Below the pieces are notes generated by a model. That model was not told where the DNA came from. It worked only from the letters and a program-made list of their open reading frames with translations, and ran no database searches. The position numbers were made by a program, and so were the translations under genes. A stretch of 64,000 nt of DNA, from the NCBI GenBank assembly GCA_052146315.1, contig JBKQNJ010000095.1:33364-97363 (forward strand), given 5' to 3'. Shown one piece after another: positions 12,981 to 28,948 of the stretch. How positions within the stretch are numbered: position 1 is the stretch's first letter; each line of letters starts with the position of its first letter. Origin of the DNA: Candidatus Acidiferrales bacterium. GTDB lineage: Bacteria; Acidobacteriota; Terriglobia; Acidiferrales; UBA7541.

Positions 12981-14309
12981 CTATTCCACATCGGTAGGCA
13001 GCAGGAAGGAAAAAGAGCTTCCGCGTCCCGGTTCGCTATCGACCCAGATTTTTCCGCGATGAGCCTGGATCAATCGTTTCGTGATTGCCAATCCCAAGCC
13101 CATGCCCGAAGACGAAGGATCGACGCGTACAAATTCTTCGAAGATTTCCTGATGGAACTCGGCCGCAATCCCGTGACCCGTGTCCGTGACTGAAATCAAC
13201 ACGCTATTGGCCTTGGCGGGGGTGCTGCGGCGCCGCTCCTGCGACGGAGACGCGTCCGAAATGCGCCGCTCCCAGAAATGCGGCTGCGCGCGCAACGTCA
13301 CCAAGCCCGTGGCGGGCGTGTGCTTGAGCGCGTTGTCGAGCAGATTGAAGATGCACTGCTGCACCTTCTGGTAATCGAATTTGAAGAGCGGAAGATCGGG
13401 ATGCACCTGCACGTCGAGGCGCACGCTGGCGCGCTGAAACGCGTCGCCCCAACGGCTCGCCAGATCGTTGATGCAGTCGCGGAGATCGTTTTCGCAAAGC
13501 TGCAGAACGAGTTTGCCGCTCTCGAGCGCCGAATAGTTGAGGAACATCGAGACGAGGCGCACGAGGCGATCGCAGCTCTCCTTCGATTCGCGCAAAATGT
13601 CCTGCTGGCGCTCGCTGAGTTTTCCGAGCGAACCCGAAAGCAGCAGGTCGTAATAGCCCTTCATCACCGCGAGCGGCGTTTTCAATTCGTGCGCGGCGGA
13701 GCCGAGCAGCACGGTCTTCTGGCGATTGGCCTCCTGCAGGCGCAGGTAGGCGGCCAGAAGATTCCTGTACGTAATCTCGCGCTCCTGCATCAGTTCCTGG
13801 ACGGTCTGGCGCATCTGCGTCTCGTCAGCAGAGACTTCTTGGGGGAGCGCCTCGATGTAGACGGCGAGCCAGTCGGGCTCCGGGAGCCAGCGGATACGCG
13901 CGACGGCCTTGCCCTGGCCGGCTTCGATCGGGAGCAGCACGTCCTGCTTGCCTCGTTCCAGCTGGCTTAGAATTTCCTTGCCATCGGCGTTAAGAATGTC
14001 TCGAAAGAGGTTCGGGTCGGGCTTGGCGCTCCACGCGAGGGGGTTCAACGCGTTCTGCGCATGGAGATTCGTGAAGACAATCAGTCCCGCGCGGTCGGAA
14101 ACAAGCAAGGGGCGATCCAAAGCATCGAGCAGACTAGCGACTGCTTGAAAACTTACCTGATCACTCGTTTGCTTTTCAGCCGCTGCCGTACTTTTGGCCA
14201 ACTCGCCCTCCACCGGCTCCGGGAACGAGCAAAGACACCACTCGAATCCTTGTCTCAGAGAATCGAGTGGGAATGGGCTCGAAGGTTTGTATGCTCGCAA
14301 AGGCGCCAA
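12981..14309 (-). CDS. sensor histidine kinase (soluble, PAS-like N-terminus)
   Basis: H-box SAAHELKTPLAV, N-box NLLDNALKHTP, G-boxes VTDTGHGI and GMGLGLAI. No obvious transmembrane segment. Lies 27 nt upstream of the NtrC-type RR gene, so probably an operon. Confidence 0.85.
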   Translation of the reverse strand: MAPLRAYKPSSPFPLDSLRQGFEWCLCSFPEPVEGELAKSTAAAEKQTSDQVSFQAVASLLDALDRPLLVSDRAGLIVFTNLHAQNALNPLAWSAKPDPNLFRDILNADGKEILSQLERGKQDVLLPIEAGQGKAVARIRWLPEPDWLAVYIEALPQEVSADETQMRQTVQELMQEREITYRNLLAAYLRLQEANRQKTVLLGSAAHELKTPLAVMKGYYDLLLSGSLGKLSERQQDILRESKESCDRLVRLVSMFLNYSALESGKLVLQLCENDLRDCINDLASRWGDAFQRASVRLDVQVHPDLPLFKFDYQKVQQCIFNLLDNALKHTPATGLVTLRAQPHFWERRISDASPSQERRRSTPAKANSVLISVTDTGHGIAAEFHQEIFEEFVRVDPSSSGMGLGLAITKRLIQAHRGKIWVDSEPGRGSSFSFLLPTDVE

Positions 14310-14461
14310 ATAGAGTCAATGGTAAAAGCGTCCTAGCGTTTGCACAAACGTGGAAATGAATTGCAGTAAACCGGAACATTTCAAAGGCTATACGGGGTGA
14401 GTCCATTCGCACGGCTTAGGCATCTAACTGAAAAGGAGCGGTTTACGAAAGCGGAATGGAG

Positions 14462-14477
14462 GGGTAGAGAACTTGCA
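14462..14477 (+). promoter_or_regulatory. weak candidate sigma-54 promoter upstream of the second PilZ gene
   Basis: GGGTAGAGAACTTGCA: GG (14463-64) and GC (14475-76) are correctly spaced and the -12 element TTGCA is good. The -24 flank is poor. It lies 43 nt before the ATG at 14520. Confidence 0.35.
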
Positions 14478-14519
14478 GAGGAAGGGGCAGCCCAACGGAG
14501 TACTAATACTCGGGTACCA

Positions 14520-14876
14520 ATGAGCGTACGAGAAAACATCGTGCAGCAGAAGGTTGCGCAGTCTTACGACGATCGGCGCCGATTCCATCGGATCCACCTC
14601 CAGGTGCCGCTCTTCATCCGTGGTAAGGATGCTCACGGGGAGCAGTTTATGGAGTTGTGTAAGACGCTTGATATCAGTGGATTAGGGGCCTTCGTCATCT
14701 GTCCGCGCTCCCTCACGATCAACGACATCATTATCCTGACGATCCCGGCTCCTTCAATCATCTCATCGGGCCTGGTGCCAGCCGGGATGCCTCCGATCCA
14801 AGCCAGGGTCAAGCGGCAACAGGAAGCCGGCGAAGCACACCTCGTAGGCGTCGAGTTCCTGAAGCCTATTGGGTAG
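14520..14876 (+). CDS. PilZ domain protein
   Basis: DDRRRFHRIHL (RxxxR) and TLDISGLGAFV (DxSxxG). I chose the ATG at 14520 (MSVRENIV...). Confidence 0.7.
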   Translation: MSVRENIVQQKVAQSYDDRRRFHRIHLQVPLFIRGKDAHGEQFMELCKTLDISGLGAFVICPRSLTINDIIILTIPAPSIISSGLVPAGMPPIQARVKRQQEAGEAHLVGVEFLKPIG

Positions 14877-15046
14877 GAAGTTTTCCACAGGCTGGGCGTT
14901 GCCCATTCGCGGCACAGCTCCGACCCGAAATGGAAGGGCTTTTCCATCCATGTTCGCCTCCGCTTGCAACCCTTGGGGGCGATCAAATAATCTACGTATT
15001 GGCAGCGACTTAGGACCGAGCCCCGGGTTATATTCTTGTCCGGGAT

Positions 15047-15062
15047 TGGACTGTCCCTTGCT
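15047..15062 (+). promoter_or_regulatory. candidate sigma-54 promoter upstream of the GGDEF-PilZ gene
   Basis: TGGACTGTCCCTTGCT: GG at 15048-49 and GC at 15060-61 have exact consensus spacing. It lies 58-76 nt before the possible starts (TTG 15120 / ATG 15138). Confidence 0.5.
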
Positions 15063-15119
15063 ACAGTGATACCGCCCCGCAGGTGTCCTGGATACAGGAT
15101 AAACTAGACGTACGTTCGC

Positions 15120-16439
15120 TTGACTCGGAACTCATTGATGCCCCAGCCAGCCGACGCTTCGCCGTCGCAGCCATCGGCGGACGATTCTTTCTTGGACCTG
15201 CTGGTCGAGACCCTCGAGGGTCTCGACGAGACGGTGCGCGGACAATTCCTCCGCCAGTTTTTCCATACCATCGCGAAAATCGATTTGCCCGAACCGCAGA
15301 GCAACGATTACTGGCAGCGGATTCTGCAGCGGCGCCGGGAACTTTCCGAAAGCCTCGGCAGAAAAGTGGCGCTGGCCACGGCTATGGTCGACGTGCTGTC
15401 GTCGACCAATTTTATTCGCGTGCCGATCGTGATGGAGTACGACGAACTCAAGAAGCTCCAGATCAACGCGGCCACGGATCCTCTGACCGGGCTCTACAAC
15501 CGGCGGCTCTTTGACGAATATTGCGACAAGGAGCTGAACCGCGCGAAACGCTACGGCCAGCATCTCGCCATCGTGATTCTGGATCTTCACCGGCTCAAGG
15601 AAGTGAACGACCGGCACGGGCATCTGCGCGGGGATCAGATGTTGCAGCTCGCGGCGACCACTCTGCGCAAGACGCTGCGCGCCGCCGACTTCGCCTTCCG
15701 CATCGGCGGCGATGAATTTGTGCTGCTCCTGCCGCAGACCGATACCGAGCAGGCCGTCACGCTGTGCCGCCGCGTCCGTTCGCTCTATGAGAGCGACGTG
15801 GTCTCGCTTAAGCTCGAAGTTGGCGTGACGCTCGATTTCGGCGTCGCCGTGCATCCGCAGGATGGCGATCAGAAAAGCGATCTGCTGCGCACGGCGGACG
15901 AGCGGCTCTACGAGCTCAAGCGCTCGGGCCACGCTCCGCGCGTGGTTCCCATCGAGACGCATCCGGCTCGCGAAAGCGCTCCGGCTGCTGCGCCGAAAGC
16001 TCCCGCCGCGCCGCCCGCGGTGGCTCCGCCGCCGAGGGCTCCCGCCGCGGTGCCTCCCCCTGTTCCGCCAAATGTTCCGCCCAGCGCGGCTGTGCCGCCT
16101 GCGCAACCTGCGGCACCGCGTTCACCAGCGCCACCGTCTCCGCCTGAACAAGCCGCCCCTCCTCCCCATTCCGAGCAGCGGAAGTGGGAACGCGTGTCGC
16201 TCGGCGGCACGAAAGCGCACGCCGTGCTGACGGATGTGGGCCAGAAAACCGCAAAGGTGATCGACCTGAGCTACGGCGGCGTGGCGCTGCTGTTCGAAAA
16301 GGAAGAAGACCTCCCGGCCCAGTTTCACGCCGTCCTTCACGTGCCGATTCTTCCGCCGGTCCGCGTGATCCTACGCAAGTCCTACGTGCTTTCGGCCGAC
16401 GACGGCCGCATGCGCGTCGGCTGCTCCTTCGTCTCTTAG
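15120..16439 (+). CDS. diguanylate cyclase (GGDEF, with I-site) fused through a Pro/Ala-rich linker to a C-terminal PilZ domain
   Basis: DPLTGLYNRR, the RAAD I-site five residues before FRIGGDEF, and a roughly 85-aa linker (PAAPPAVAPPPRAPAAVPPPVPPNVPP...). Then QRKWERV (RxxxR) and VIDLSYGGVAL (DxSxxG). Confidence 0.85.
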   Translation: MTRNSLMPQPADASPSQPSADDSFLDLLVETLEGLDETVRGQFLRQFFHTIAKIDLPEPQSNDYWQRILQRRRELSESLGRKVALATAMVDVLSSTNFIRVPIVMEYDELKKLQINAATDPLTGLYNRRLFDEYCDKELNRAKRYGQHLAIVILDLHRLKEVNDRHGHLRGDQMLQLAATTLRKTLRAADFAFRIGGDEFVLLLPQTDTEQAVTLCRRVRSLYESDVVSLKLEVGVTLDFGVAVHPQDGDQKSDLLRTADERLYELKRSGHAPRVVPIETHPARESAPAAAPKAPAAPPAVAPPPRAPAAVPPPVPPNVPPSAAVPPAQPAAPRSPAPPSPPEQAAPPPHSEQRKWERVSLGGTKAHAVLTDVGQKTAKVIDLSYGGVALLFEKEEDLPAQFHAVLHVPILPPVRVILRKSYVLSADDGRMRVGCSFVS

Positions 16440-16525
16440 GCTTCCCGGGCATTGCTGGAAAAATCTGGCGGAGCGCGCTAAGATACAGCTTCCGTTTCCG
16501 GCCTGCCGAGTCGATTGGGCGTTCC

Positions 16526-17419
16526 ATGGCGGTTACAATTTCCTTACCTCAAACCATTTCAAAGAAGCGCGCTGGTCTTGACGTGTGGATGGAGCGCGCG
16601 CTCGACAAGGCGTCAAACATCGAGCCGGAATGGGACGCAGACGAGGTCCACGACCTGCGCGTCGCGCTGCGGCGCTGCCGGACCATGGCCGAGGCTTTGA
16701 GCGAAGTCAGCGCCAGCTCTGGCTGGCGCAAGCTCAAGAAAGCCAGCAGGGGACTCTTTCACACGCTCGGCGATCTTCGCGATACGCAGGTGCAGCGCGG
16801 CTGGGTGAAGAAGCTGGGCTCGGCGGGCGATCCGGTGCGGAAACACCTGTTGCGTCTGCTGGCTGGCGAGGAAAAGAAGCAGAAGGGACTCGCGGCGCAG
16901 GCCCTTGAGGTGTTCGATCGCAAGGAATGGAAAAAGCTTGGGCGCAAGCTGCCGGACAAGGCCGAATTTTTCCCGCTGGGGAGCGTCGTATTCCAACGGC
17001 TGGCTTTGGCGAAGCTCAACGAAGCCGTCGAGCTTTACCAGCAGGCGCGGAAAAGACGCAGCGCCGTCGCCTGGCATCGGCTACGGATCGGCCTGAAAGA
17101 ATTTCGCTACATCGTTGAGAATTTTCTGCCCGAGCGCTATGAGGTCTGGGCCGCCGATCTGAAGGTGATGCAGGATCAGCTCGGCGACGTCCACGATCTC
17201 GATGTGCTGCGCGGCAGACTGCGCAAGGAGGCTGCGAGGCTCGACGCCGCGGCCCTCGCCAAATGGATCGAGAAAATCGCCACGACGCGCAAGTCGCGGC
17301 TCGACGAATTCCTCGCGAAAGCCTCCGGTCCCGAATCGCCGTGGCTCGTTTGGCGGGCAGGATTTCAATGGGGACACGCGCTCGTCGCCGCATCCTTCCC
17401 GCAGCGCCGCACCGCATGA
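16526..17419 (+). CDS. CHAD domain protein (polyphosphate-granule-associated family)
   Basis: EVHDLRVALRRCRTMAEAL and the repeated AWHRLRIGLKEFRYIVE helices are typical of CHAD. The ATG at 16526 was chosen; the upstream part of the track ORF overlaps the GGDEF gene in another frame. Confidence 0.8.
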   Translation: MAVTISLPQTISKKRAGLDVWMERALDKASNIEPEWDADEVHDLRVALRRCRTMAEALSEVSASSGWRKLKKASRGLFHTLGDLRDTQVQRGWVKKLGSAGDPVRKHLLRLLAGEEKKQKGLAAQALEVFDRKEWKKLGRKLPDKAEFFPLGSVVFQRLALAKLNEAVELYQQARKRRSAVAWHRLRIGLKEFRYIVENFLPERYEVWAADLKVMQDQLGDVHDLDVLRGRLRKEAARLDAAALAKWIEKIATTRKSRLDEFLAKASGPESPWLVWRAGFQWGHALVAASFPQRRTA

Positions 17420-17423
17420 AGTC

Positions 17424-17487
17424 TCTAAGGTTTTCCGGGTGCCCCATCCTCGGTTTCTGAGGGTGGGGCTTTTGACTTTCCGTTTCT
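17424..17487 (+). repeat. 64-nt REP-like dispersed element, copy A
   Basis: tctaaggttttccgggtgccccatcctcggtttctgagggtggggcttttgactttccgtttct. It is near-identical to 24082-24145 (4-5 mismatches, same orientation). Confidence 0.8.
17442..17473 (+). terminator. hairpin plus T-run inside REP copy A; plausible intrinsic terminator of the CHAD gene
   Basis: CCCCATCCTC ggtttct GAGGGTGGGG forms a 10-bp stem with one G-U pair, followed by cTTTTg. It lies 23 nt after the CHAD stop, between convergent genes. Confidence 0.5.
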
Positions 17488-17544
17488 ATCGCGATAGCTC
17501 GCGGTGGAAGCGCGAGTCCTTTGAGGACACAAACGATTCGTTCG

Positions 17545-18039
17545 TCAGCCTTCCAATTTCCGCAGGAACTTGGCGGTCAGCACCCACTTCAGATTCCACC
17601 GGCTGTGCGGAGAAGCTTGTTCGAAGCACGCGGCGCCAGCCTTCTTCAATTCCGTGAACGGTCCGCGCGATCCCGCCAGCTGCGCGATCAGCAGATCGAG
17701 ATGAGGCGCGTGGCCGAAGAGCGCCACTTCCTTTGCCTTGAGGTGCGAGATCTCCTTCAAGATTTCGGCCGGATTCTGCGCGGGCTTCAGCGCGTCGCTC
17801 ACGCGAATTTTCTCCGGTGAAAAGGCGAGTGCCTCCGCGAATATTTCCGCGGTTTGCGCCGCGCGCACGTAGGGGCTCGTGATCAGCACTTCCGGTTTCG
17901 CGCTCAGCGCGCAGAACCCGAGCGCCGCTTCGCGCGTCTTTTGCACGCCGCGCGCGGTCAAAGGACGTTCCGCCTCGGCCGGCGATTTCGGATCGGTGCG
18001 GTCGACGGCGATGCCGTGGCGGACGAGATAGAGGATCAT
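17545..18039 (-). CDS. sixA: phosphohistidine phosphatase SixA-like (histidine phosphatase superfamily)
   Basis: MILYLVRHGIA ... RPLTARG ... LITSPYVRAAQTAEI ... LFGHAP. The RHG catalytic motif is at the N-terminus. Confidence 0.8.
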   Translation of the reverse strand: MILYLVRHGIAVDRTDPKSPAEAERPLTARGVQKTREAALGFCALSAKPEVLITSPYVRAAQTAEIFAEALAFSPEKIRVSDALKPAQNPAEILKEISHLKAKEVALFGHAPHLDLLIAQLAGSRGPFTELKKAGAACFEQASPHSRWNLKWVLTAKFLRKLEG

Positions 18040-18042
18040 GGT

Positions 18043-19602
18043 TTAGGCGACCTTCTCCTTTCGCTGCACACGCCGGAACTCCGTCTTCAGGTGAAATTCT
18101 CTTTCGAAGAGCGCCGCCTTGCGTTCCAGTCCGGTCACATCGAGCCGCGTGCCCTCGGCCGCGCGGATCAGAAAAATCGCGCGATGCCCGGCGATCTGGA
18201 CGTCCACGCCCTCCACGCGCTGCGCGTGCTCCGATTCGAGTTTTTCGGCGATGCGCAGCAGCGAAGTGAGCAGGCGCATCTCGCGCCGCCGCGAGCCATC
18301 GAGCGCGGCGTACGAGGCGTGTTCGATTTGCGGCTCGGATTTGCAATTGTGGTAGCGCACCAGCGCGCCGACCATATCGCGCCGCCAGCCGCGCAACCCG
18401 GGAATCTCGCTGTTGCGGATCATGTATTCGCCGTGGCGGTTGTGCGACTTGCGGTGAACGAAATGCCCGATATCGTGCAGCATCGCTGCGATTTCAAGCA
18501 GCAGCCGGTGATCCGGTCCCAGCTCGTGGATCGGGCGCAGCTGATCGAAGAGCGAAAGCGCGAGGCGCGAGACCTGCTCGGCGTGCTGCGGGTCGTAGTT
18601 GAGGCGGCTAGCGAACCACCGCGCCGCGGTCAGCAACTCCTCGGCGCGGTCTTTTTCCTCCGCCGACGCTTTGCCCGCCGAATATTGCTCGGCGACCAGA
18701 TCGAGCAGCAGCCCCTCGCGCACGCCCACGCCGGGCACGAGAATCGAGCGCAGGTCGAGCCACTTCGCCACCGTGCCGATAATGATCGCCGCGATGCCGA
18801 TCACTTCGGCGCGGTCTCTGCGCATGCGAAACACGCGCATGCGGCCCGGCACGTCGAGGAGCAGCAGCCGCAGCCTCTGGTCTTTCAGCAGCCGCACGTT
18901 GATCGCCGGCGTCCTGCCAAACATCGGACCAGGCGCGAAGCGCACGAGCGCTTCGGCATTTCCGCCGGACGCGACGCCGATCGCGCGCGAAAGCTTCGGC
19001 GGCGAGGGCATCGCGCTGCGCAGCAGAGCCAGAATGTGTAGCTTCAGCCGCTTCGCGCTTTCTTCGTCGATGGCGCCGTCGATCGCGTAGGTTTCCATCA
19101 ACCGAATCGTGCCGAGCGGCAGCGCGACGCGCTCGCTCACTTCTCCGCGATCGAAAAAATTGATTTCGAGGCTGCCGCCGCCCAGATCGAAAATCACGCG
19201 CGGCTGAACTTTGTCGCCGAGCGCCCACCGCACGGCCGAGCAGACCAGCCGCGCCTCTTCCTCGCTCCCGATCACTTCGAGTTCGATTCCGGACTTCCGC
19301 TGGATGCGCTCCATCAGCTTCCGGTAGTTGCGCACTTCGCGCGCGGCGGCCGTGGCGACGGCGCGGTACGCCGTCACCTGATGGCGGTCCATGCGGTCGC
19401 GAAAGTGCCGGAAGACCCGCGCCGCCCGCGAAATCGTCTCGTCGTCGAGCAGATGCCGCGTGAAGGCGTTATGCCCGAGGCGCACGGCGGCACGTTCGGT
19501 CTCCAGAATCTCGATGTGTTGCGGGGAAGTGGCACGCGCTATCACCAGCCGGATGGCGTTCGATCCGGCGTCGATCGCTGCCAGTTGTACCGGGGCGGCC
19601 AC
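18043..19602 (-). CDS. ppx: exopolyphosphatase Ppx/GppA with C-terminal HD domain
   Basis: LAAIDAGSNAIRLVIA, DLGGGSLEI (ASKHA fold), and a C-terminal LHDIGHFV...HNRHGEYMI HD motif. Confidence 0.9.
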   Translation of the reverse strand: MAAPVQLAAIDAGSNAIRLVIARATSPQHIEILETERAAVRLGHNAFTRHLLDDETISRAARVFRHFRDRMDRHQVTAYRAVATAAAREVRNYRKLMERIQRKSGIELEVIGSEEEARLVCSAVRWALGDKVQPRVIFDLGGGSLEINFFDRGEVSERVALPLGTIRLMETYAIDGAIDEESAKRLKLHILALLRSAMPSPPKLSRAIGVASGGNAEALVRFAPGPMFGRTPAINVRLLKDQRLRLLLLDVPGRMRVFRMRRDRAEVIGIAAIIIGTVAKWLDLRSILVPGVGVREGLLLDLVAEQYSAGKASAEEKDRAEELLTAARWFASRLNYDPQHAEQVSRLALSLFDQLRPIHELGPDHRLLLEIAAMLHDIGHFVHRKSHNRHGEYMIRNSEIPGLRGWRRDMVGALVRYHNCKSEPQIEHASYAALDGSRRREMRLLTSLLRIAEKLESEHAQRVEGVDVQIAGHRAIFLIRAAEGTRLDVTGLERKAALFEREFHLKTEFRRVQRKEKVA

Positions 19603-19605
19603 TCG

Positions 19606-20475
19606 TTAGCGCCAGAGGTGCTGGAGTGCGTGCGAAGGCTTGTAGTGCGTGCTGCGGATGCCGAGGTGCGAAGCGATGCGCTTGCGCAGCACCCGGTTCA
19701 CGTCCGAGACGCTTCCCTCGCCGTCCATTTCAATGAAGCCGTGCCGCTTCGACAGGTATTCGAATTCGCCCTTCACCAGCGATTGGTAGCGGATGAACGA
19801 CTGGAAGAGATCGTTCGAAAGCGACATGTCGCGGCCCGACTCCCAATAGCTGATCGTCTGCGATTTCTTGAATTCGCGGTCGAATGCGATTTCCGGCCGC
19901 ACGTTCAGCCAGAACGTCAGGTCCGGCCGCAGCGCGATTTCGTAAATCCCATGCAGGTAGTCCCGCCCGATCCCGCGCACCGCGGCGCGCGCGATCAGCG
20001 TGAAGATATAGCGGTCGGCGAGCACGATCAACCCCGAACGCAGCGCCGGCAAAATCCGCCGCTCGAGCTGGTCGAAGAAATCGGTGCTGTACATCAGCGC
20101 GAGCGTCATGCGCGTCACGGTATTTTCGGCGAGCAGCGCGTCGATATCCTCGCCCACCAGAAACGATCGCCGCAGCCCCATCGTCTGCACGGCGAATCCT
20201 TCGGATTCGAGCCATTCGGTGAGCAGCGAAATCTGCGTCGAGCGGCCCGAGCCGTCCGTGCCCTCGACCACGATCAGGCTGCCGCTCAGCTCCTCGGGCT
20301 TCACGCCCGGCAGCGGGATGCCGTAAAAGCGCGCGAGCAGGTCCGAGTTGCCGTTGCGACCCTTCTTCGGGGATTTGCTCGCGCGCGTGTCCGAGCGGCC
20401 GCCTGCGGGGCCGTTTGATCGGCTTTTCGCGGCGCCGTTCGTGGAAGCGGACGATGGAGAGCCGTTGCGCGTCAT
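19606..20475 (-). CDS. thymidylate-kinase-like protein with Lys-to-Arg P-loop and a basic, disordered N-terminal extension
   Basis: IVVEGTDGSGRSTQ (canonical form is GxDGxGK[ST]T) and LADRYIFT (DRY-like). About 70 N-terminal residues are rich in S/G/R/K/N. Confidence 0.7.
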   Translation of the reverse strand: MTRNGSPSSASTNGAAKSRSNGPAGGRSDTRASKSPKKGRNGNSDLLARFYGIPLPGVKPEELSGSLIVVEGTDGSGRSTQISLLTEWLESEGFAVQTMGLRRSFLVGEDIDALLAENTVTRMTLALMYSTDFFDQLERRILPALRSGLIVLADRYIFTLIARAAVRGIGRDYLHGIYEIALRPDLTFWLNVRPEIAFDREFKKSQTISYWESGRDMSLSNDLFQSFIRYQSLVKGEFEYLSKRHGFIEMDGEGSVSDVNRVLRKRIASHLGIRSTHYKPSHALQHLWR

Positions 20476-20482
20476 TTCTTCG

Positions 20483-21229
20483 TCACTTCTTTTTCTTCGG
20501 CGCGAAAGGCGCGAGATTGATTTTCTCGGCGAGAAGATTGCGCATCTGCTTCTGCAGCTTGTTCACGCGGGCCGTGCCGTCCATCAGGACGAACCGGTCT
20601 GTCTCGATCATCTGGTCGTAGTTGTTGAGGATGCGTTCCTGGAAGATGCGGAAGCTTTCGGCGCGATCGAGCGAGATGCCGAGGTCCATGCCCGCTTCGT
20701 AATATTTCAGCTTCGGCCGCCCGGCGACGATGCGATTGACGGCCACATCGAGCGGCGCGCGAAAATAAAACGTAATGTCCGGCACCGGCGCGAAGCTATA
20801 CAGATTGCGCAGCCAGCGCGGCGAACAACCGCGGGCCGCGTCGCGCGCAAACGCCGTATAAACGTAGCGGTCGGCCAGCACCAGATACCCGCCGTGGAGC
20901 AGCGGCAGAATCTGCCGCTCGCAGCGGTCCGCGAAATCCGCCGCGTGCAGCATCGAGAAGGTCGTCGGCGTCAAGAGGCGCCGCTGCTTGCCGCGCCGCG
21001 TTGCCGATTTCACCAGCGGCGACGAATTCCACTCCGTGAAATGGATCCGGTAGCCGCCAATCTCGAGCCACCGCTTCAGCAGGTAGAGCTGCGTGCTCTT
21101 GCCCGACCCGTCGATTCCCTCCACCACCACCAGCGCGCCCGGATACTCGCGCTTCGCCGCCGCCGCCTTTTCGGGCGCTTCGTCGGTCAGCACGGGAATT
21201 TCGGGAGTGATAGTCGCCATGGGGCACAC
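20483..21229 (-). CDS. thymidylate-kinase-like protein (canonical P-loop)
   Basis: VVVEGIDGSGKSTQLYLL and LADRYVYTAFA. Lies 7 nt upstream of the second Tmk-like gene. Confidence 0.75.
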   Translation of the reverse strand: MCPMATITPEIPVLTDEAPEKAAAAKREYPGALVVVEGIDGSGKSTQLYLLKRWLEIGGYRIHFTEWNSSPLVKSATRRGKQRRLLTPTTFSMLHAADFADRCERQILPLLHGGYLVLADRYVYTAFARDAARGCSPRWLRNLYSFAPVPDITFYFRAPLDVAVNRIVAGRPKLKYYEAGMDLGISLDRAESFRIFQERILNNYDQMIETDRFVLMDGTARVNKLQKQMRNLLAEKINLAPFAPKKKK

Positions 21230-21292
21230 CCAAACCGCAGGCTCAATGATACGTCCAAAGCCTCAACCGGGCATGAAAATTCTGTTACATCT

Positions 21293-21880
21293 CTAGGGAT
21301 GACTTGAGGCGGGCGACGGAATGATGCTTCCGTTGTAAGACTGCGCAAACTCGTGAAATGCCGGCAGGGATGCCGTATAAGTCTCCTTGGTCTTTGCGCT
21401 GAGCACCAGGGTGAGGACGCGGGTCTGCTCTGCGATATAAATGACCTGCTCAAATGCGTTGTGCGATTCGCCGCTTTCGAACGTGCGAACAGGGACGGAC
21501 GTCTTCCCATTGGGAAGCGCCAGCGGTTCCTCGATTCGAACCGTTCCATGCTTGAATCGAGCATGGAATCCGGCGATGTCCGATTGAATGTATTCGTCCC
21601 GGTTCTTCAGGTCTTCTTTGGGTCCGATTGGGCACCCGCTGACGTAGATCCACACGTCGGCAGTCTCGAGATGCGTGCCCTTCTTGACGAACGTCTCCAT
21701 GCCCAGACCATCGGTGCGCTCCCAACCCTTGGGTGTGTTCAGGATCAGGAGCCCTTGACCCGTTAGCTGTATTTCGGGCGGTTGAGAGGCTGGGCTGGAT
21801 CGTTGTTGCGCCGGCGCACTAATTGCGACGAGAGTGAGTGCGACGAAGCACAGCTTCGTGACGCGAGCACGTAATTTCAA
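21293..21880 (-). CDS. hypothetical secreted protein
   Basis: A TTG at 21878-21880 is preceded by GGGAG and gives (M)KLRARVTKLCFVALTLVAISAPAQQ, which looks like a signal peptide. The longer track ORF has an Arg-rich, implausible N-terminus. Lower G+C than the flanks. Confidence 0.5.
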   Translation of the reverse strand: MKLRARVTKLCFVALTLVAISAPAQQRSSPASQPPEIQLTGQGLLILNTPKGWERTDGLGMETFVKKGTHLETADVWIYVSGCPIGPKEDLKNRDEYIQSDIAGFHARFKHGTVRIEEPLALPNGKTSVPVRTFESGESHNAFEQVIYIAEQTRVLTLVLSAKTKETYTASLPAFHEFAQSYNGSIIPSPASSHP

Positions 21881-21941
21881 TGCGCGACTCCCTCGTTGGG
21901 ATTGGCCAGACGTCAGCGTTCTGGCATCCGGCCAACGAATC

Positions 21942-23867
21942 CTACCGCGCTTCGCCAGCCGGCGGAGGCGCACCTGCACTCGGCGCTGCGCCCGACGCGG
22001 GCGGCGGTGGCACGGGCACGTTCCCATCGAGCGTGAACGTATAGAGCCGCCCCTTGCCCTGGCGTCCCGCGAGCACCGACACATACTCCTTGCCGTCGAG
22101 CATGTAGCACACCGGATTCGCGAATCCCGCTTGCAGCTTCACGCTCCACAGCTTCTCGCCTTTATCCGCGCTGAACGCTTCGAAATCGCCGCCACTCGAA
22201 GCGGCGAACACGAGATTCCCCGCGGTCGTCATCGTGCCGCCGCCACCGGTTGCGGGCACTTTCCACCGCGCAGTCTCCGTCGCCGGATCCCACGCCACCA
22301 AGAAATTCCCGGCGGGCGGCGCGGGAGGAGGCGGCGGTGGAGGCGGCGCGGCGTTACCACGAGCTGCGACCGGGCCCGTGCCTCTGCCCGCGGCGTCCCT
22401 GAAAATGATTCCCCAATTGTACGCGCCGAGCTCCGGCTTGAATGCCGGCGCCTGCACGTACGCAAAGCTCGACGCCATCCCTGGCGTCACATACACGAGA
22501 TTCGTCTCCGGATTGAACGACATCCCCTGCCACACGTGCCCGCCGCCCGGCCCCGGCCAGACGATCGTGGGCGTCGTGCCGTAGTGCGCCTCGGGATTGT
22601 CGATCGGCCGCCCCGTCTTCGGGTCGAGTCCTTTGTTCCACGTGATTTTCTGCAGCGGCGCGCCGGAAATGAATTTCCCGGTCTTGCGGTCGATCACGTA
22701 GAAGTAGCCGTTCTTCGGCGCCTGCATGATCACGTGGCGCAGCTTGCCGTCGATCGTCACGTCAGCCAACACCAGATCCGCGATCGCGTCGTAGTCCCAC
22801 TCGTCGCCCGGCGTGGTCTGGAAATACCACACGAACTTGCCCGTTTCCGGCTTCAGGGCGATGATCGAGCAAATGTACAAATTGTCCTTGCCCATCGCGC
22901 TGCGATATTTCTGCACCCACGGGCCGGCCTGACCCGTGCCGAAATACAGCAGGTCGAGCTTCGGATCGTACGAAATCGCGTTCCACGGATTGCCGCCTCC
23001 GCCTAATTTCCACCATTGAATATCGGGCGACCACGTCTTCGCCGCGGCTTCCATCGCTTTGTTCTCAAATGGTTTCGACGGATCGCCTGGGACCGTGTAG
23101 AAGCGCCAGTCGAGCTTGCCCGTCTCCGCGTCGTACGCCGAAATAAATCCGCGCACGGCGAATTCTCCGCCGCCGTTGCCGATGATCACTTTATCTTTCA
23201 CGATCAGCGGCGCGCCCGTGATGCTGTAGTCCGCGTTTTTCTCCGCCGTCTGGACGCTCCACACCACCTTGCCCGTTTCCGCGTCCAGCGCGACGAGCCG
23301 CGCGTCGAGTGTCCCGACGTAAACCTTGCCGTCATACACCGCCACGCCGCGATTGCCCGGCCCGCAGCACAGGCTCGGCCCCGTGCGCACTTTGTCCGCG
23401 TCCGGCTTGCCCATCGAGCCGGTGGGAAAATTCTGGTGGCCCACTTGCGGGTCCCAGCGCCACTTCTCTTTTCCCGTGCGCGCGTCGACGGCAAACACCA
23501 CGCCCCACGTCAACGTCGCATAGAGCGTGCCATTCGAAATCACCGGAGACGCCTGGAGCGTCCCGGGGAGAGAATCGGTGTCGTAATACCACGCGAGCCC
23601 CAGCCGGCTCACATTCGACGCGTCGATCTGCGTCAGCGGGCTGTACCGCGTCGCCTCATAATTCCCCGCGTTCATCAGCCATTCGCCGCTCTTCCAGCCG
23701 TTCAGCAGCGCCCCGGCAGTCACTTGCCCCGTCTCGCTGCCGTGATCCTGCCCCGCGGCCACAGCCCAACCCGCCAGCCCAGCCAGCATCACCAGAAGCG
23801 CAACCAAACCCCAAGTCTTCGCATTTCCGAATTTCGCATTTCGCAATTTCGCATTTCGCGATTTCAT
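21942..23867 (-). CDS. PQQ-dependent (quinoprotein) alcohol dehydrogenase family protein, periplasmic
   Basis: YSPLTQIDASNVSRLGLAWYY, FAVDARTGKEKWRW, and the vicinal-Cys motif SLCCGPGNRGVAVYDGKVY, with repeated W-docking propeller motifs. The signal anchor is WGLVALLVMLAGLAGWAVAA. Confidence 0.85.
   Translation of the reverse strand: MKSRNAKLRNAKFGNAKTWGLVALLVMLAGLAGWAVAAGQDHGSETGQVTAGALLNGWKSGEWLMNAGNYEATRYSPLTQIDASNVSRLGLAWYYDTDSLPGTLQASPVISNGTLYATLTWGVVFAVDARTGKEKWRWDPQVGHQNFPTGSMGKPDADKVRTGPSLCCGPGNRGVAVYDGKVYVGTLDARLVALDAETGKVVWSVQTAEKNADYSITGAPLIVKDKVIIGNGGGEFAVRGFISAYDAETGKLDWRFYTVPGDPSKPFENKAMEAAAKTWSPDIQWWKLGGGGNPWNAISYDPKLDLLYFGTGQAGPWVQKYRSAMGKDNLYICSIIALKPETGKFVWYFQTTPGDEWDYDAIADLVLADVTIDGKLRHVIMQAPKNGYFYVIDRKTGKFISGAPLQKITWNKGLDPKTGRPIDNPEAHYGTTPTIVWPGPGGGHVWQGMSFNPETNLVYVTPGMASSFAYVQAPAFKPELGAYNWGIIFRDAAGRGTGPVAARGNAAPPPPPPPPAPPAGNFLVAWDPATETARWKVPATGGGGTMTTAGNLVFAASSGGDFEAFSADKGEKLWSVKLQAGFANPVCYMLDGKEYVSVLAGRQGKGRLYTFTLDGNVPVPPPPASGAAPSAGAPPPAGEAR
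23821..23866 (-). repeat. 15-nt in-frame tandem repeat (about 2.8 copies) at the 5' end of the PQQ-dehydrogenase ORF
   Basis: The minus strand reads CGAAATGCGAAATTG CGAAATGCGAAATTC GGAAATGCGAAG and encodes RNAKL RNAKF GNAK. Confidence 0.7.
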
Positions 23868-24081
23868 ATGTCGCATTCCCCCACGCAAAGATCGCGTCCC
23901 GCGAGCCCCACCCAGGCCCACGCACGCGCCCACATACTAATCCCACGGCCAATTTTTTGCTCGACGTTTGTGGGTCCAGGGTTTCGTAGCGGCTTGCCCT
24001 GAGTGCTGTCGCGAAGGGCGGCCTTTTCACCTTGCCTGCCCTGACGCAGGAAGGGACGTAGGAAGGGCAGGCCGGCGGACT

Positions 24082-24145
24082 TCTAAGTTTTTTCGGGTGC
24101 CCCATCCTCGGTTTGTGAGGGTGGGGCCTTTGACTTTCCGTTTCT
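24082..24145 (+). repeat. 64-nt REP-like dispersed element, copy B
   Basis: tctaagttttttcgggtgccccatcctcggtttgtgagggtggggcctttgactttccgtttct. It matches 17424-17487. Confidence 0.8.
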
Positions 24146-24209
24146 CTGTCGTCCGCCGCACCCGCTGTTGCCTTGAGGTTAAAACGTGGTGCCGGGCATC
24201 AGGCCGGCG

Positions 24210-25286
24210 TCATTCCTTGCCGGAAACGGGCGACCACCGCGCCACCGTCGACATCGCGTCCTGCCAGCTGCTCCAGCCCGAGCCCATGCCATATGGACCA
24301 CGGTGGTACACAGCTTCGATCCGCCGGATCTTTCCGTGCTCGACGCGAAAGACCTCCGAGATTTCCCAGGTCCACGGCGTCACAGGTCCCACCGTCACCG
24401 TGCGCCCATCGGGAATCTGAAACGTGCGCGTCTTCCCCGCCGCGTGATCGAAGAAGCACCACGCCAGCGCCACTCCGCGCTCCGGATCGACCACCACGAA
24501 TCTCCGGTCGCGTATCCGCGTAACGAAATGCAGCAATCCTGATTCGAACTGCTCCTTGCATCCCCACTCGGCCGAGTAGCTCAAATCCGCCCTGCGGCGC
24601 GCGTTGTCGATGGAATTCCCCTGCGACGCCAGCACGTTGGACGTGTCCGCCGAGTGGTTGTTCGTCGCTTCCGCGCCGTTCTCCACACGATCGCAATCGT
24701 CCGTGAACGGGTAACTTCCCTTTCCGTCGTTGAGCTGCATCCCCGAAAAGTACATGTTCGCGGCCTTCACAAGTTCCGCGCGCGAAACGCGGTCGGCGGC
24801 GGGAATCGTTTCCGTGAAAAGAGGATCGGGATGGCCGCGCTTTTCCAGATTCTCGGCCTCGGTCTTATCGCGATTGACGATCGTCTCGATCTCGGCAATC
24901 TTCTGATCCTCGATTTTCAAGCGCAGCGAAAGAATCACCGGCTCGCCGGCCTCCCGCATCGTTCCGAAGAAGCCCGCTTCCCCGGCCTGCACGTCTTCCA
25001 TATAGAACTTGTAGGTGCCTTTTCCGGTCGCGGTGTTCCACAGCCCGTCGCCGAGATTCAGCCGTTGCCCGTCTTCAGTGAATTTCACCGTGGGCGTCAC
25101 GGGCAGCCGCGACGGATCGTTTGCAGCGACCGCGTCGAGATAGCGGTCCACGAATCCGTCCAGGCACGCCCGGTCGCAACCGCTCGCCGCCGTCCCGGCC
25201 GCCGGCTTGGCCGGCGCCACTTGCGCGGCAATCGCGATCAATGCGCCCGCCGCCACACCAACTCGAATCAGAATTTTCCCTCGCAT
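24210..25286 (-). CDS. hypothetical exported protein
   Basis: The ATG at 25286 gives MRGKILIRVGVAAGALIAIAAQVAPAKPAAG, which looks like a signal peptide. No family recognised. Confidence 0.55.
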   Translation of the reverse strand: MRGKILIRVGVAAGALIAIAAQVAPAKPAAGTAASGCDRACLDGFVDRYLDAVAANDPSRLPVTPTVKFTEDGQRLNLGDGLWNTATGKGTYKFYMEDVQAGEAGFFGTMREAGEPVILSLRLKIEDQKIAEIETIVNRDKTEAENLEKRGHPDPLFTETIPAADRVSRAELVKAANMYFSGMQLNDGKGSYPFTDDCDRVENGAEATNNHSADTSNVLASQGNSIDNARRRADLSYSAEWGCKEQFESGLLHFVTRIRDRRFVVVDPERGVALAWCFFDHAAGKTRTFQIPDGRTVTVGPVTPWTWEISEVFRVEHGKIRRIEAVYHRGPYGMGSGWSSWQDAMSTVARWSPVSGKE

Positions 25287-25527
25287 CGAATCACCAGTGG
25301 CACAGGCAATCCCGCCCGTGCATCCTTCCTCATCCGCACGCACAGCGCCTTCGCCCACACCGCGCGCGGAACCCCGCGTATCCTACACCCCGTCGCCGCC
25401 TTTGCGACAGACCGGCCGCCCGTGTGATCGCTCCGGCGGTTTCGTAGCGGCTGTCCTGCGAGTCCTGATAGAAGTCGAAGGAGCGGGGCCGAATAGACAA
25501 CAACGTCTTGAAACTTCACACCTGGCG

Positions 25528-26352
25528 CTACGAGGCTGGAGAGGTCGCGAAGGTCTTGTTTCGAAAGGAAGCCTCAACTGTTGCGGCAATCGAAAGGCAA
25601 TCTTCCGCTGCAAGTACAGGGTGGCGAACGCGGCGAGGGAATTCGTCATAGGTCCGTCCGTCAAGCTTTCTGCCCGTCGCAGACTTACGAACGCCGCCCC
25701 ACTGCTTAAAGAAGAAGGCCGCTCCTGCACGCTGACATTGGTCTCGAACAGACAGCACCCACTCCCTATTCATGGGCCTCGCCCCTGGTCCACTTTCGCC
25801 GCCCACTATCACCCAATGGATTCCATCCAGATCAAACCGTCCGAGGTCTTCGAGCAAGGGCTCGACGGAGAGAAATCGAATCTCCGCGCTCGCTTTCCGC
25901 AAGTCGTCGATGCGCGGAAGGCCGTACTTTCGATCCTCAACACTTACTCCCCACCATATATGCGGCTGGCACGCCGCGAACGCCAAGCTAGAATTCAGAA
26001 GTTCTCGAAGGCGCTCAGATCGTTTCGTCAGCACCTGATAGGTATGCCATCTGGCCGCGACCATAACCTTCGCGACCTCCTTGATGTAGGCGTCCGGTAC
26101 GGCGTCATGAAACAGATCACTCATCGAGTTGACGAAGACCATCTTTGGCGCACGCCATCGCAACGGCTCGCCGAGCTTCTCGGGAACCAAGCGCAAGTCG
26201 AACCCTTGCTCGTACGGATGCCTTCTGACTCCCCGGAATCGCTCCGCGAACGTTTCCGCGTAGCAGTGCTTGCAGCCGGGGCTAATCTTTGTGCATCCCC
26301 TTACCGGATTCCAGGTGGCATCCGTCCACTCGATTGCGGATACTTGGGCCAT
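25528..26352 (-). CDS. DUF5131 / phage Gp37-Gp68 family protein (three-Cys-motif protein)
   Basis: MAQVSAIEWTDATWNPVRGCTKISPGCKHCYAETFAERF is the characteristic N-terminus, with a Cx6Cx2C motif. The ATG at 26352 lies 2 nt after the stop of the upstream TcmP-like ORF. Confidence 0.8.
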   Translation of the reverse strand: MAQVSAIEWTDATWNPVRGCTKISPGCKHCYAETFAERFRGVRRHPYEQGFDLRLVPEKLGEPLRWRAPKMVFVNSMSDLFHDAVPDAYIKEVAKVMVAARWHTYQVLTKRSERLRELLNSSLAFAACQPHIWWGVSVEDRKYGLPRIDDLRKASAEIRFLSVEPLLEDLGRFDLDGIHWVIVGGESGPGARPMNREWVLSVRDQCQRAGAAFFFKQWGGVRKSATGRKLDGRTYDEFPRRVRHPVLAAEDCLSIAATVEASFRNKTFATSPAS

Positions 26353-26354
26353 TA

Positions 26355-27181
26355 CTACCTCCGGTACTTCGAGAAAATCTCGCGAGCGATCTTTTCTGCA
26401 GTGCTGTTCTGCGATGCGAAGAAGAGATAGTAAACTATCGCGCCTTTGGAATTCTGCATCGGTAGAGGCTCCGGCACGCACTTAAAACCCCCGGCTTCCT
26501 TGAGCCTCTTCCGAAATGCTTCGGCGATTACCTCGTTTGGCTCTTTCTCGACCATAGGTCCGAACAGGCCCTGCGTAGTTCCGTATGCGACCTGTCTCCA
26601 AGACTCGTCGCCCCAAAACCGATTCATTCTCTCGACTTGTTCTGGCCTTGCTCGCTCAGGATTTCTCCATATGGCATTCCTGTTCATGTCCTGTACCGGG
26701 AAGTTCAAGAACACGTCCAAGGTTTTCATCTCTCCGGCAGTCGCCATCACTTTCCAATCTAGATGGAGTCCATATGGATCAAGCACGCAAAGTCCTCGAC
26801 GATACTGGTCATATCGGACTCGGGGGAAAACATCCTGCAGTAGTATTTCATTGCAGTCGCCTTGATAAATGAAAACATCCTTGCGCAGGCCGACAAGCTC
26901 TTGCAGGCTTCGATCTTTTCTGGGGCGATGTCGATGAGATGAAATTCCCGGAATTCCGGCCGGACAGCCAGCGCGTTAAGCGGGCTTCCGGGAACAAGTT
27001 CCTGGCTTGCCCTCGAGAGGTGCTTCCCAGCGCCGGCGAAAGCGTCGATGTAGACATGCGAAAGTGCGGCCTTCGTCTGCGAGGAGAGAATTATCGAGTA
27101 GGCAGCGGCGTATTTCTTCAGAATCTCCAGTTTGATCTCGGACCACACTCCGATCTTGTCGAATTGAAGGTGCTTGGCCAT
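26355..27181 (-). pseudogene. three-Cys-motif partner protein TcmP-like, split by a frameshift (or a sequencing error)
   Basis: The N-terminal ORF (26759-27181) has YIDAFAGAGKH, a methyltransferase-motif-I-like sequence. The C-terminal ORF (26355-26786) begins LDPYGLHLDW. My translation of the C-terminal frame upstream gives ...SLQELVGLRKDVFIYQGDCNEILLQDVFPRVRYDQYRRGLCVLDPYGL, so one continuous protein is restored by a single-nucleotide shift. Confidence 0.65.
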
Positions 27182-27267
27182 CCTTGTGGGTATCTTCGCC
27201 CTATCTTCGCCCTGCAGTCAAGCGGTGTCGCCACGACGTCACGTAAATGACGAGAGCGATGCCACAA

Positions 27268-27810
27268 CTACGAACGAGAATATTTCTCGGCGAGCCGGGC
27301 AATGGTATTTAGCCCGCGAAACGTGGCGCTGACTTTCAGGACGCGCTCGAAGCGCGCATTCGAGAATTTCGATTCGGTTTGCTTGCGTGTGCAGAGCCAG
27401 TACATTTCGCGGCCGTTGACGTGGAAATCGTCGGCGTCCGTCTTCATCGCGGCGAGGAGCTCTTGCGCGGCGGCATCGAGCGGCGTGGCGAGGAACGCGA
27501 CGCTCAGCGTCAGGGCGGCCTGCATGCGCGCTACGTCAAACGGCTTGTAGCGTGCGATGGCCGCAATCTCCGCCTCGCTTCGCAGGAACGTTTTCACCTC
27601 GTAGCCCAGCGCCTTTTCGAGGTGCGCTTCGATCTTCTGTTCGAGCGCGGTGTCGTTCTTCGCGCTCGTCGTGAAAATCACGTTGCCGCTGTTGATGAAT
27701 GTCTCGACCTGCTCGAGCCCGAGCTTCTCGAAATGGCCGCGCAGCGCCGCCATCGTCACGAAGTGGCCTCCGACGTTGATGGCTCGCAGAAATGCGATTC
27801 GTCTCGGCAT
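27268..27810 (-). CDS. DUF1697 domain protein
   Basis: MPRRIAFLRAINVGGHFVTMAALRGHFEKLGLEQVETFINSGNVIFT is the DUF1697 N-terminal signature. The ATG at 27810 was chosen. Confidence 0.8.
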   Translation of the reverse strand: MPRRIAFLRAINVGGHFVTMAALRGHFEKLGLEQVETFINSGNVIFTTSAKNDTALEQKIEAHLEKALGYEVKTFLRSEAEIAAIARYKPFDVARMQAALTLSVAFLATPLDAAAQELLAAMKTDADDFHVNGREMYWLCTRKQTESKFSNARFERVLKVSATFRGLNTIARLAEKYSRS

Positions 27811-27965
27811 CGGCTGAATCTGAAATCCTGAAATTTCAAATCTGAAATTCGCATCCGCGCATGCTTGCGCGGCACTCGGAAATGTGCCACGTTGGGTGCT
27901 GGCGCGCAAGCCACGAAGTCCGAGTGGGCCAGAGCGAAAATCAGCCGAAGGGCCGCAAGTTCATG

Positions 27966-28050
27966 CCATTTCTAATCGACACTGCGGCGATTAGAAATCG
28001 TCGTAATTGTATGAAAACAAACGACGGGCACCCATTCTAATCGACACACT
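27966..28050 (+). promoter_or_regulatory. repeat/inverted-repeat leader upstream of PPK2 (operator or RNA switch candidate)
   Basis: Direct repeat CCATT(T)CTAATCGACAC at 27966-27983 and 28032-28048. Perfect 11-nt inverted repeat atttctaatcg (27968-78) / cgattagaaat (27988-98). The second direct repeat abuts the SD aagaggagg (28051-59). Confidence 0.35.
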
Positions 28051-28072
28051 AAGAGGAGGTCCGCGAAGCGCG

Positions 28073-28888
28073 ATGGCGACAAACTTCAGCAAAGAGCTGG
28101 CAGTCAAACCGGGGACGAAAATGCGGCTGGCGGACTGGGATCCCGAAGACACGCTCGGCTGGGACAAGGGCCACAAGATGAACGCGGCCCTCGACAAGGC
28201 CATCGCGAAGCTCGACAAGCTGCAATACCTCCTGTACGCCGAGCACAAGCGCGCGCTGCTGATCGTCCTGCAAGGCCGCGACGCCGCCGGAAAGGACGGC
28301 ACCATCCGGCATGTGATGTCCGGCGTGAACCCGCAGGGCTGCCACGTGACATCGTTCAAGAAGCCTTCGGCCGAGGAAGCGTCGCACGAATATCTTTGGC
28401 GCGTCCACAAGGCCGTCCCGGAATACGGCGACATCGGAATTTTCAACCGTTCCGTCTACGAGGATGTGCTGGTGGTGCGCGTGCACGATCTCGTGCCGAA
28501 GGAGGTGTGGTCGAAGCGCTACGATCAGATCAACGACTTTGAGGAAATCCTGCATCAGAATCGCATCAAGATCCTGAAATTTTTCCTGCACATCAGCAAG
28601 GACGAGCAGAAAAAACGCTTCCAGCAGCGCATCGACGATCCCGATCGCCGCTGGAAGATTTCGCAGGCCGATTTCGACGAGCGGAAATTCTGGGACGACT
28701 ACACGCGGGCCTATGAAGATGCGCTCGCGAAGTGCAGCACGCCGCACGCGCCGTGGTTCGTGATTCCGTCAAACAAGAAATGGTTCCGCAACCTCGCGGT
28801 TTCGCACATCATCACCGAGACGCTCGAGAGCATGGACATGAAATTCCCCGCGCCCACGGTCGATATCAAGAAACTGAAATGGAAGTAA
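28073..28888 (+). CDS. ppk2: polyphosphate kinase 2 (PPK2) family phosphotransferase
   Basis: LLIVLQGRDAAGKDGTIRHV (PPK2 Walker A), FNRSVYEDVLVVRVH, EQKKRFQQRIDDPDRRWKIS, WFVIPSNKKWFRN. A strong RBS precedes the ATG at 28073. Confidence 0.9.
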   Translation: MATNFSKELAVKPGTKMRLADWDPEDTLGWDKGHKMNAALDKAIAKLDKLQYLLYAEHKRALLIVLQGRDAAGKDGTIRHVMSGVNPQGCHVTSFKKPSAEEASHEYLWRVHKAVPEYGDIGIFNRSVYEDVLVVRVHDLVPKEVWSKRYDQINDFEEILHQNRIKILKFFLHISKDEQKKRFQQRIDDPDRRWKISQADFDERKFWDDYTRAYEDALAKCSTPHAPWFVIPSNKKWFRNLAVSHIITETLESMDMKFPAPTVDIKKLKWK

Positions 28889-28948
28889 AGGAATAGAAGT
28901 AACGAAAGAGGTGCGCGAGCCAGGAGCGCATCCCGGCCCGCGCAAATC

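Follow-up and report, generated by a model that had tools for sequence, protein, structure and literature searches.

A probable PPK3-type polyphosphate kinase module built on paired thymidylate kinase paralogs in a Candidatus Acidiferrales genome

Two adjacent genes that resemble thymidylate kinase (Tmk) genes lie together with ppx and sixA genes on the minus strand of a 64,000-nt window (the whole stretch of DNA that was analyzed). The window belongs to contig C95 of a metagenome-assembled genome (MAG) that is 84% complete, and the MAGs nearest to it come from soil and peat and are labelled Acidobacteriota or Candidatus Acidiferrales. A bacterial polyphosphate module of the PPK3 type is the preferred reading of the locus, with a probability of roughly 85%. 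Judged by their sequences, the two Tmk-like proteins are most likely the counterparts of the catalytic (cPPK3) and regulatory (rPPK3) subunits of the heteromeric polyphosphate kinase of Sulfolobus acidocaldarius (SaPPK3), and the locus is an uncharacterized bacterial member of a family that has already been published. A sequence-only reading had suggested that the pair are kinases distinct from Tmk, possibly heterodimeric, that act in nucleotide metabolism linked to either polyphosphate or guanosine tetra- and pentaphosphate, (p)ppGpp. PPK3 homology and synteny bear out the polyphosphate half of that proposal, and the (p)ppGpp half is unsupported.

PPK3 was named by Hofmann et al. (J Biol Chem 2026, PMC12995831; preprint 10.1101/2024.08.28.610084). 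In S. acidocaldarius the operon saci_2017-2021 has the order sixA-ppx-cPPK3 (Saci_2019)-rPPK3 (Saci_2020)-CHAD. Saci_2019 forms polyphosphate from ATP and, preferentially, ATP from polyphosphate and ADP. Saci_2020, inactive alone, activates cPPK3 when the two are combined 1:1 as an alpha2-beta2 complex, and the enzyme favors the regeneration of ATP from polyphosphate at low energy charge (PMC12995831). The authors place PPK3 in a Tmk-paralog clade with linkage to ppx, sixA, and CHAD and describe its occurrence in the Sulfolobaceae, the Nitrososphaeraceae, and "a few" bacteria (PMC12995831); the preprint (10.1101/2024.08.28.610084) lists Acidobacteriota among the latter.

The proteins of the window were typed by Pfam and NCBIfam profile searches, and the S. 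acidocaldarius operon and one Nitrososphaera locus served as references. The first gene of the cluster (20483-21229, minus strand) encodes a cPPK3-like protein of 248 amino acids (c1, P0002) that scores 71 bits against PF02223. This protein is 47% identical to Saci_2019 and matches the PDB entries 2plr and 5h70, structures of the cPPK3 homologue of Sulfurisphaera tokodaii (ST1543), at E = 5e-59. The second gene (19606-20475, minus strand) encodes an rPPK3-like protein of 289 amino acids (r1, P0001; 72.5 bits against PF02223) that is 30% identical to Saci_2020 and 52% identical to the Nitrososphaera r subunit, and it matches the ST1543 structures at E = 2e-38. In a maximum-likelihood tree of 58 sequences, obtained by a quick search with support from the Shimodaira-Hasegawa-like approximate likelihood ratio test (SH-aLRT) only, PPK3-type sequences stand apart from seven canonical Tmks (SH-aLRT 95). 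The r clade (SH-aLRT 99) holds r1, Saci_2020, the Nitrososphaera r subunit, and r2, the r protein of a second pair that the genome carries on contig C130. The c clade (SH-aLRT 84) holds c1, Saci_2019, ST1543, the Nitrososphaera c subunit, and the C130 partner, c2. The branching of the c subtree is largely matched by that of the r subtree, which is expected of subunits that are inherited together.

An AlphaFold2 model of r1 has the dTMP kinase fold, with a mean pLDDT score of 85.5 (predicted local distance difference test); residues 1-43 score below 50 and appear disordered. The top PDB matches of this model in a Foldseek search are the ST1543 structures, with a target-normalized template modeling (TM) score of 0.90. 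Among the PDB sequence and fold matches, none shows an r subunit or a c/r complex. Neither Tmk-like protein matches the PPK2 profile (PF03976), and a PPK2 identity was rejected for both. A reading of the locus as a defense system was also considered and rejected.

The association of the Tmk-like pair with ppx, from which the sequence-only reading had argued and whose absence from relatives would have spoken against it, is retained across relatives. The 80 best related loci, all from species-level genomes (78-97% identity), each have c followed by r, together with ppx; 78 have sixA and 77 a convergent CHAD gene. This arrangement of c-r-ppx-sixA with a convergent CHAD gene is not due to chance. 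At greater distance, c is followed by r in each of 20 loci drawn from 19 families of Acidobacteriota, with ppx adjacent in 14 and sixA in 11. A CHAD gene is adjacent in at least 3 of the 20 by BLAST, which is insensitive for CHAD.

The residues of c1 are those expected of a catalytic subunit. It has a Walker A motif GIDGSGK44ST, the stretch TEWNSS, a basic patch (R78, K81, R83, and R102), DR121Y, and the lid residues R171 and K175. The c-type sequences share GxDGSGK(S/T)T, TEWNSS, the basic patch, DRY, ARD, and the basic lid residues. The positions of R78, K81, R83, R102, R171, and K175 are 70-97% Lys or Arg in c-type sequences and mostly not so in r-type sequences. On sequence evidence, this pattern agrees with the published polyphosphate cleft that is conserved only in cPPK3 (PMC12995831).

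The two proteins might instead be genuine nucleoside monophosphate kinases, acting on dTMP or another substrate and perhaps taking phosphate from polyphosphate, that were duplicated for salvage and are linked to ppx by chance or co-regulation. Both pass the Pfam Thymidylate_kin threshold, and both nearly reach the cut-off of the dTMP kinase equivalog TIGR00041, with 81.6 bits for the product of 19606-20475 and 82.2 bits for that of 20483-21229 against 83.25 bits. Additionally, ST1543 entered the PDB as a dTMP kinase (2plr, 4nzy, 4rzx, and 5h70) and was described as such in its first publication. However, these scores stay under the equivalog cut-off, and the pair is linked to ppx and not to holB, with ppx, sixA, and CHAD kept beside it far beyond chance. 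Where the holB-linked Tmk has FPHYEG, the aligned stretch is TEWNSS in c-type sequences and GLRRS in those of the r type, and the r subunit is without the Walker A lysine. Saci_2019 and Saci_2020 are both devoid of dTMP kinase activity in vitro, and the true dTMP kinase of S. acidocaldarius is Saci_0893 (PMC12995831). A separate tmk is present beside holB in the genome described here. Taken with this evidence, a pair of nucleoside monophosphate kinases is very improbable.

The separate tmk is one of six Tmk-profile matches in the genome, which comprise the pair in the window, the C130 pair, and single genes on contigs C33 and C128. The condition that would have refuted the sequence-only reading, that one of the pair is the sole tmk of the genome, thus does not hold. 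The C33 gene (21194-21904) is a single tmk directly upstream of holB and was taken as the housekeeping gene. Its product scores 72 bits against PF02223, where the canonical Tmks of other Acidobacteriota reach 121-177 bits, and 69.9 bits against TIGR00041, below the cut-off of 83.25. It has the GKRT and FPHYEG motifs and, because these accompany the low scores, is best read from its sequence as a divergent type of housekeeping Tmk. A search of the phylum with this protein as the query (E <= 1e-25) gave matches in two genomes only, the threshold being too strict. A Pfam search found a separate canonical Tmk in all five complete PPK3-bearing genomes of Acidobacteriota. The C128 match is a deoxynucleoside-kinase-like protein.

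The r subunit departs from the published description. According to Hofmann et al., rPPK3s lack the arginine of the DRX motif (PMC12995831), a trait that r1 does not display since it has DR155Y. Instead, the Walker A motif of r1 is GTDGSGR78ST, in which Arg replaces Lys, and the basic patch of the c type is lost. This combination of a retained DRY with an Arg in Walker A is common to r1, C130 r2, and the Nitrososphaera r subunit. Saci_2020 has the Walker A motif GIMSSGKTT, with Lys, and DGY in place of DRY. In an r-class sample of about 180 sequences, about 80 of which are close relatives, 158 have Arg at the Walker A position, 6 have Cys, and others have a further residue, with Lys only in the Sulfolobales type without the DRX arginine. 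Almost every full-length r-class sequence, r1 included (R78), thus carries a lesion in a catalytic residue. These lesions follow two alternative routes: either Arg replaces the Walker A Lys, which is the commoner case, or the DRX arginine is lost. Loss of the DRX arginine therefore describes the Sulfolobales r type and not the whole PPK3 family, because the Nitrososphaera r subunit that the authors included keeps DRY.

The strict pattern of the Arg type raises the possibility that the locus encodes a PPK3 in which the r subunit binds nucleotide or polyphosphate and either senses it allosterically or provides a slow second active site, with regulation unlike that in Sulfolobus. This would refine and not contradict the assignment to PPK3. 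The motif GxDGxGR[ST]T with DRY dominates the class (the 158 sequences with Arg, including that of Nitrososphaera), and strict conservation of Arg, as opposed to drift, suggests selection on the Walker A site. The DRY arginine, the lid, and the arginines R155, R163, R167, and R200, which are in common with the c subunit, are retained in r. However, replacement of the Walker A Lys by Arg in P-loop kinases usually abolishes phosphotransfer, and the basic cleft residues specific to c are lost in r. A few r-type clusters have Cys at the Walker A position, which speaks against a strict chemical role for Arg, and the count of 158 includes about 80 close relatives. A sensing or slowly active r subunit is therefore considered unlikely, although clearly less so than the pair of nucleoside monophosphate kinases discussed above.

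Several variations in the architecture of the two subunits were also observed. The N-terminal tail of r1 (about 45 residues) is basic, rich in Ser, Gly, Lys, and Arg, and predicted to be disordered (pLDDT < 50); such a tail might contact polyphosphate. The r subunits of relatives have N-terminal extensions of varying length. Three cluster representatives (P0126, P0202, and P0222; 454-471 aa) look like single-chain c-r fusions of two Tmk-like domains, and P0144, P0163, P0168, and P0271 (623-696 aa) are among the clusters with a c-like N-terminal domain on a protein of about 650 amino acids.

The third gene of the cluster (18043-19602, minus strand) encodes an exopolyphosphatase of the Ppx/GppA family in its long form, with a Ppx-GppA match and domain III/HD. 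The fourth (17545-18039, minus strand) encodes a SixA-like histidine phosphatase with a His_Phos_1 match and an RHG motif at residues 7-9; it scores 68.7 bits against the SixA model TIGR00249, under the cut-off of 74.5. A (p)ppGpp module, in which the Ppx/GppA protein is a pppGpp phosphohydrolase and the two kinases act on guanine nucleotides, would fit the membership of GppA in the same family and a score of 117.9 bits against the GppA model NF008260. However, this score is far under the cut-off of 624 bits, and the top model for the protein is the exopolyphosphatase TIGR03706 (203 bits, under its own cut-off of 307). CHAD and PPK2 point to polyphosphate, and SaPPK3 does not accept GTP as a donor and works only weakly with GDP (PMC12995831). 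Of all the explanations weighed, this one is the least credible.

By homology to SaPPK3, the proteins of the proposed PPK3 module would act as follows. The catalytic subunit c1 would bind ATP or ADP at its P-loop and polyphosphate in its basic cleft, and would move phosphate reversibly between polyphosphate and ADP. The r1 protein would be a catalytically impaired paralog and the activating partner of c1, with which it would assemble (as alpha2-beta2 in Sulfolobus). The two subunits, with Ppx, SixA, and CHAD, would form a polyphosphate turnover module able to regenerate ATP from polyphosphate, as in Sulfolobus. The activity, stoichiometry, and preferred direction proposed here are carried over by analogy with the archaeal complex; what the sequences themselves establish is the membership in the family, the synteny, the pattern of residues, and the separate tmk.

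Several observations weigh against this proposal. Function is transferred entirely, by analogy, from a single enzyme of an archaeon, to which the identities are 30-47%. The tree comes from a quick search, its support for the c clade is 84, and the exact place of Saci_2020 is unsure because this protein sits on a very long branch. The published account, in which rPPK3 is inactive because the DRX arginine is absent, does not fit r1; since r1 keeps DRY, this subunit may have residual or different activity. Finally, the genome already has a PPK1 (on contig C77) and one PPK2 (28007-28888), which leaves the physiological need for a third polyphosphate kinase unexplained. The only Ppx/GppA gene and the only CHAD gene found in the genome are those at this locus.

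The distribution of PPK3 across Acidobacteriota bears on its relation to PPK1. An adjacent c and r pair is present in 58 of the 401 species genomes sampled and in 34 of the 228 genera. PPK1 occurs in 235 of the 401 genomes, but in only 10 of the 58 with PPK3 compared to 225 of the 343 without it, in a comparison of related genomes that are not independent samples. PPK3 thus tends to occur where PPK1 is not found, an apparent either/or pattern that fits the suggestion of Hofmann et al. that PPK3 and PPK1 replace each other (PMC12995831). The genus of the source genome is an exception to this pattern: PPK3 is present in 17 of its 18 species, with two pairs in about 12, and PPK1 is present in 11. 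Sister families within the order showed neither PPK3 nor PPK1.

The second tandem pair of the source genome lies on C130 (107491-108285 and 108282-109208) and has GIDGSGKST in the first protein and GTDGAGRTT with DRY in the second. The pair has no ppx, sixA, or CHAD nearby; it adjoins thiC and a gene of the Ser/Thr kinase-TPR type. Most of the pairs with which it groups in the tree are without an adjacent ppx. A tentative extension of the PPK3 assignment is that the Arg-type r subunit (GR[ST]T with DRY), which predominates among the r-type sequences examined from outside the Sulfolobales, is a ligand-sensing pseudokinase that binds nucleotide or polyphosphate, and that the two c/r pairs of the genus, one linked to ppx and one orphan, are isoenzymes with distinct roles alongside PPK1 and PPK2. 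As a whole, this combination is doubtful.

The layout of the locus is as the sequence-only reading had described it. The four open reading frames (ORFs), at 17545-18039, 18043-19602, 19606-20475, and 20483-21229, are close packed, with gaps of 3, 3, and 7 nt, and the profile searches confirm their domains. The predicted convergent CHAD gene and the PPK2 about 7 kb away were both found. The CHAD-domain protein (PF05235, 95.8 bits) is encoded on the plus strand at 16526-17419 within an ORF that spans 16184-17419, with ATG 16526 as the likely start. The gene order and tight spacing suggest that c, r, ppx, and sixA are carried on one transcript. This transcript would end at a 13-bp, GC-rich hairpin (17441-17469) with a T-run behind it, which is likely a terminator shared by the ends of CHAD and sixA. 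The hairpin lies inside a 64-nt element that resembles a repetitive extragenic palindromic (REP) sequence (17424-17487, without assigned strand) between the convergent stops of CHAD and sixA. A second copy of this element occurs in the window at 24082-24145 (60 of 64 positions identical), and the genome contains 41 matches. A search of positions 14000-29500 against Rfam (E <= 0.1) gave no match.

The cPPK3 gene is preceded by 64-70 nt, upstream of which ends a small, non-conserved ORF, and a sigma-70-like promoter was looked for in front of cPPK3 and not found. The small ORF (21293-21880, minus strand) lies between a pyrroloquinoline quinone (PQQ) dehydrogenase gene and cPPK3 and encodes a signal-peptide-like N terminus; a Pfam search with it gave no match, and it was not detected among the 80 related loci. 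The PPK2 gene (28007-28888, plus strand) encodes a single-domain protein of 293 amino acids and begins 6.8 kb from the start of the operon. The intervening block (21230-28006) contains the PQQ dehydrogenase gene, a DUF5131 islet, and a DUF1697 gene. Of the related loci, 72 extend far enough upstream for comparison; the flank contains PPK2 in 55 of these, and in 42 the gene is divergent and immediately upstream of c. Because most relatives lack the 6.8-kb block and have PPK2 abutting cPPK3 divergently, the block is probably an insertion into a PPK2-PPK3 polyphosphate cluster.

The sequence-only reading had also placed CHAD 86 nt downstream of a sigma-54-promoted GGDEF-PilZ gene and had seen in this a hint of coupling between cyclic di-GMP (c-di-GMP) and polyphosphate. 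The GGDEF gene (15120-16439, plus strand) does stop at 16439, 86 nt before the CHAD start at 16526. The sigma-54 site fared less well: in a search for TGGCAC-N5-TTGC (up to 2 mismatches), sites were not above those in shuffled sequences, and none lay upstream of GGDEF or the operon genes. A match to GG-N10-GC, TTGGACTGTCCCTTGCT (about 15045-15061), was found by eye only, upstream of the GGDEF gene at a distance of about 60 nt. The C-terminal 145 residues of the GGDEF protein score only 13.6 bits against PilZ (E = 0.086; positions 2-85 of the 102 in the profile), which is under the threshold, and a separate small PilZ ORF is present at 14397/14520-14876. PilZ-GGDEF genes follow CHAD in only 28-30 of the 80 related loci, and the PilZ-GGDEF-histidine kinase-NtrC series does so in only 25-30, about a third. 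The case for coupling is therefore weak, and any such coupling would be a feature of a subgroup.

Both subunits still bear the label "dTMP kinase" in public sources and in NCBIfam and Pfam models, and polyphosphate metabolism in Acidobacteriota is therefore under-annotated. Bacterial PPK3 was called rare by Hofmann et al., compared to the 58 of 401 species of Acidobacteriota found here, and the two routes by which r subunits appear to be disabled refine the published description. These additions (the Arg-type r subunit, the breadth of PPK3 in Acidobacteriota, and its coexistence with PPK1, PPK2, and a second pair) are modest and leave the kind of system unchanged.

The known system most like this locus is SaPPK3 itself. 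Both have the same five families (SixA, Ppx, c, r, and CHAD), with c immediately before r and a canonical dTMP kinase elsewhere in the genome, and in both the c subunit keeps the P-loop Lys, the DRX Arg, and the basic patch. The two differ in gene order, which here is c-r-ppx-sixA with a convergent CHAD gene, whereas in Sulfolobus sixA-ppx-c-r-CHAD lie on one strand. The r1 protein has DRY and a Walker A Arg where Saci_2020 has Lys and DGY, and it carries the basic disordered tail of about 45 residues. The Ppx here is the long, domain III form of 519 amino acids, compared to 411 in Sulfolobus. The host also differs, being a bacterium and presumably a mesophile that has PPK1, PPK2, and a second c/r pair.

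Among solved structures, the one nearest to both c1 and r1 is that of ST1543 (STK_15430) of Sulfurisphaera tokodaii, although this is a c-type protein that was crystallized alone. Canonical Tmks, whose genes are usually linked to holB, share the P-loop kinase fold with its Walker A, DRY, and lid motifs, but the pair in the window is only 25-27% identical to the holB-linked Tmk of its own genome, falls into a separate clade, and is linked to ppx. A further parallel, drawn by Hofmann et al. (PMC12995831), is the two-domain class II type of PPK2 (for example PA3455 of Pseudomonas aeruginosa), in which an active unit is likewise joined by an inactive paralogous unit that drives oligomerization. 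That type, however, belongs to family PF03976, has both units fused in one chain, and uses AMP as its substrate.

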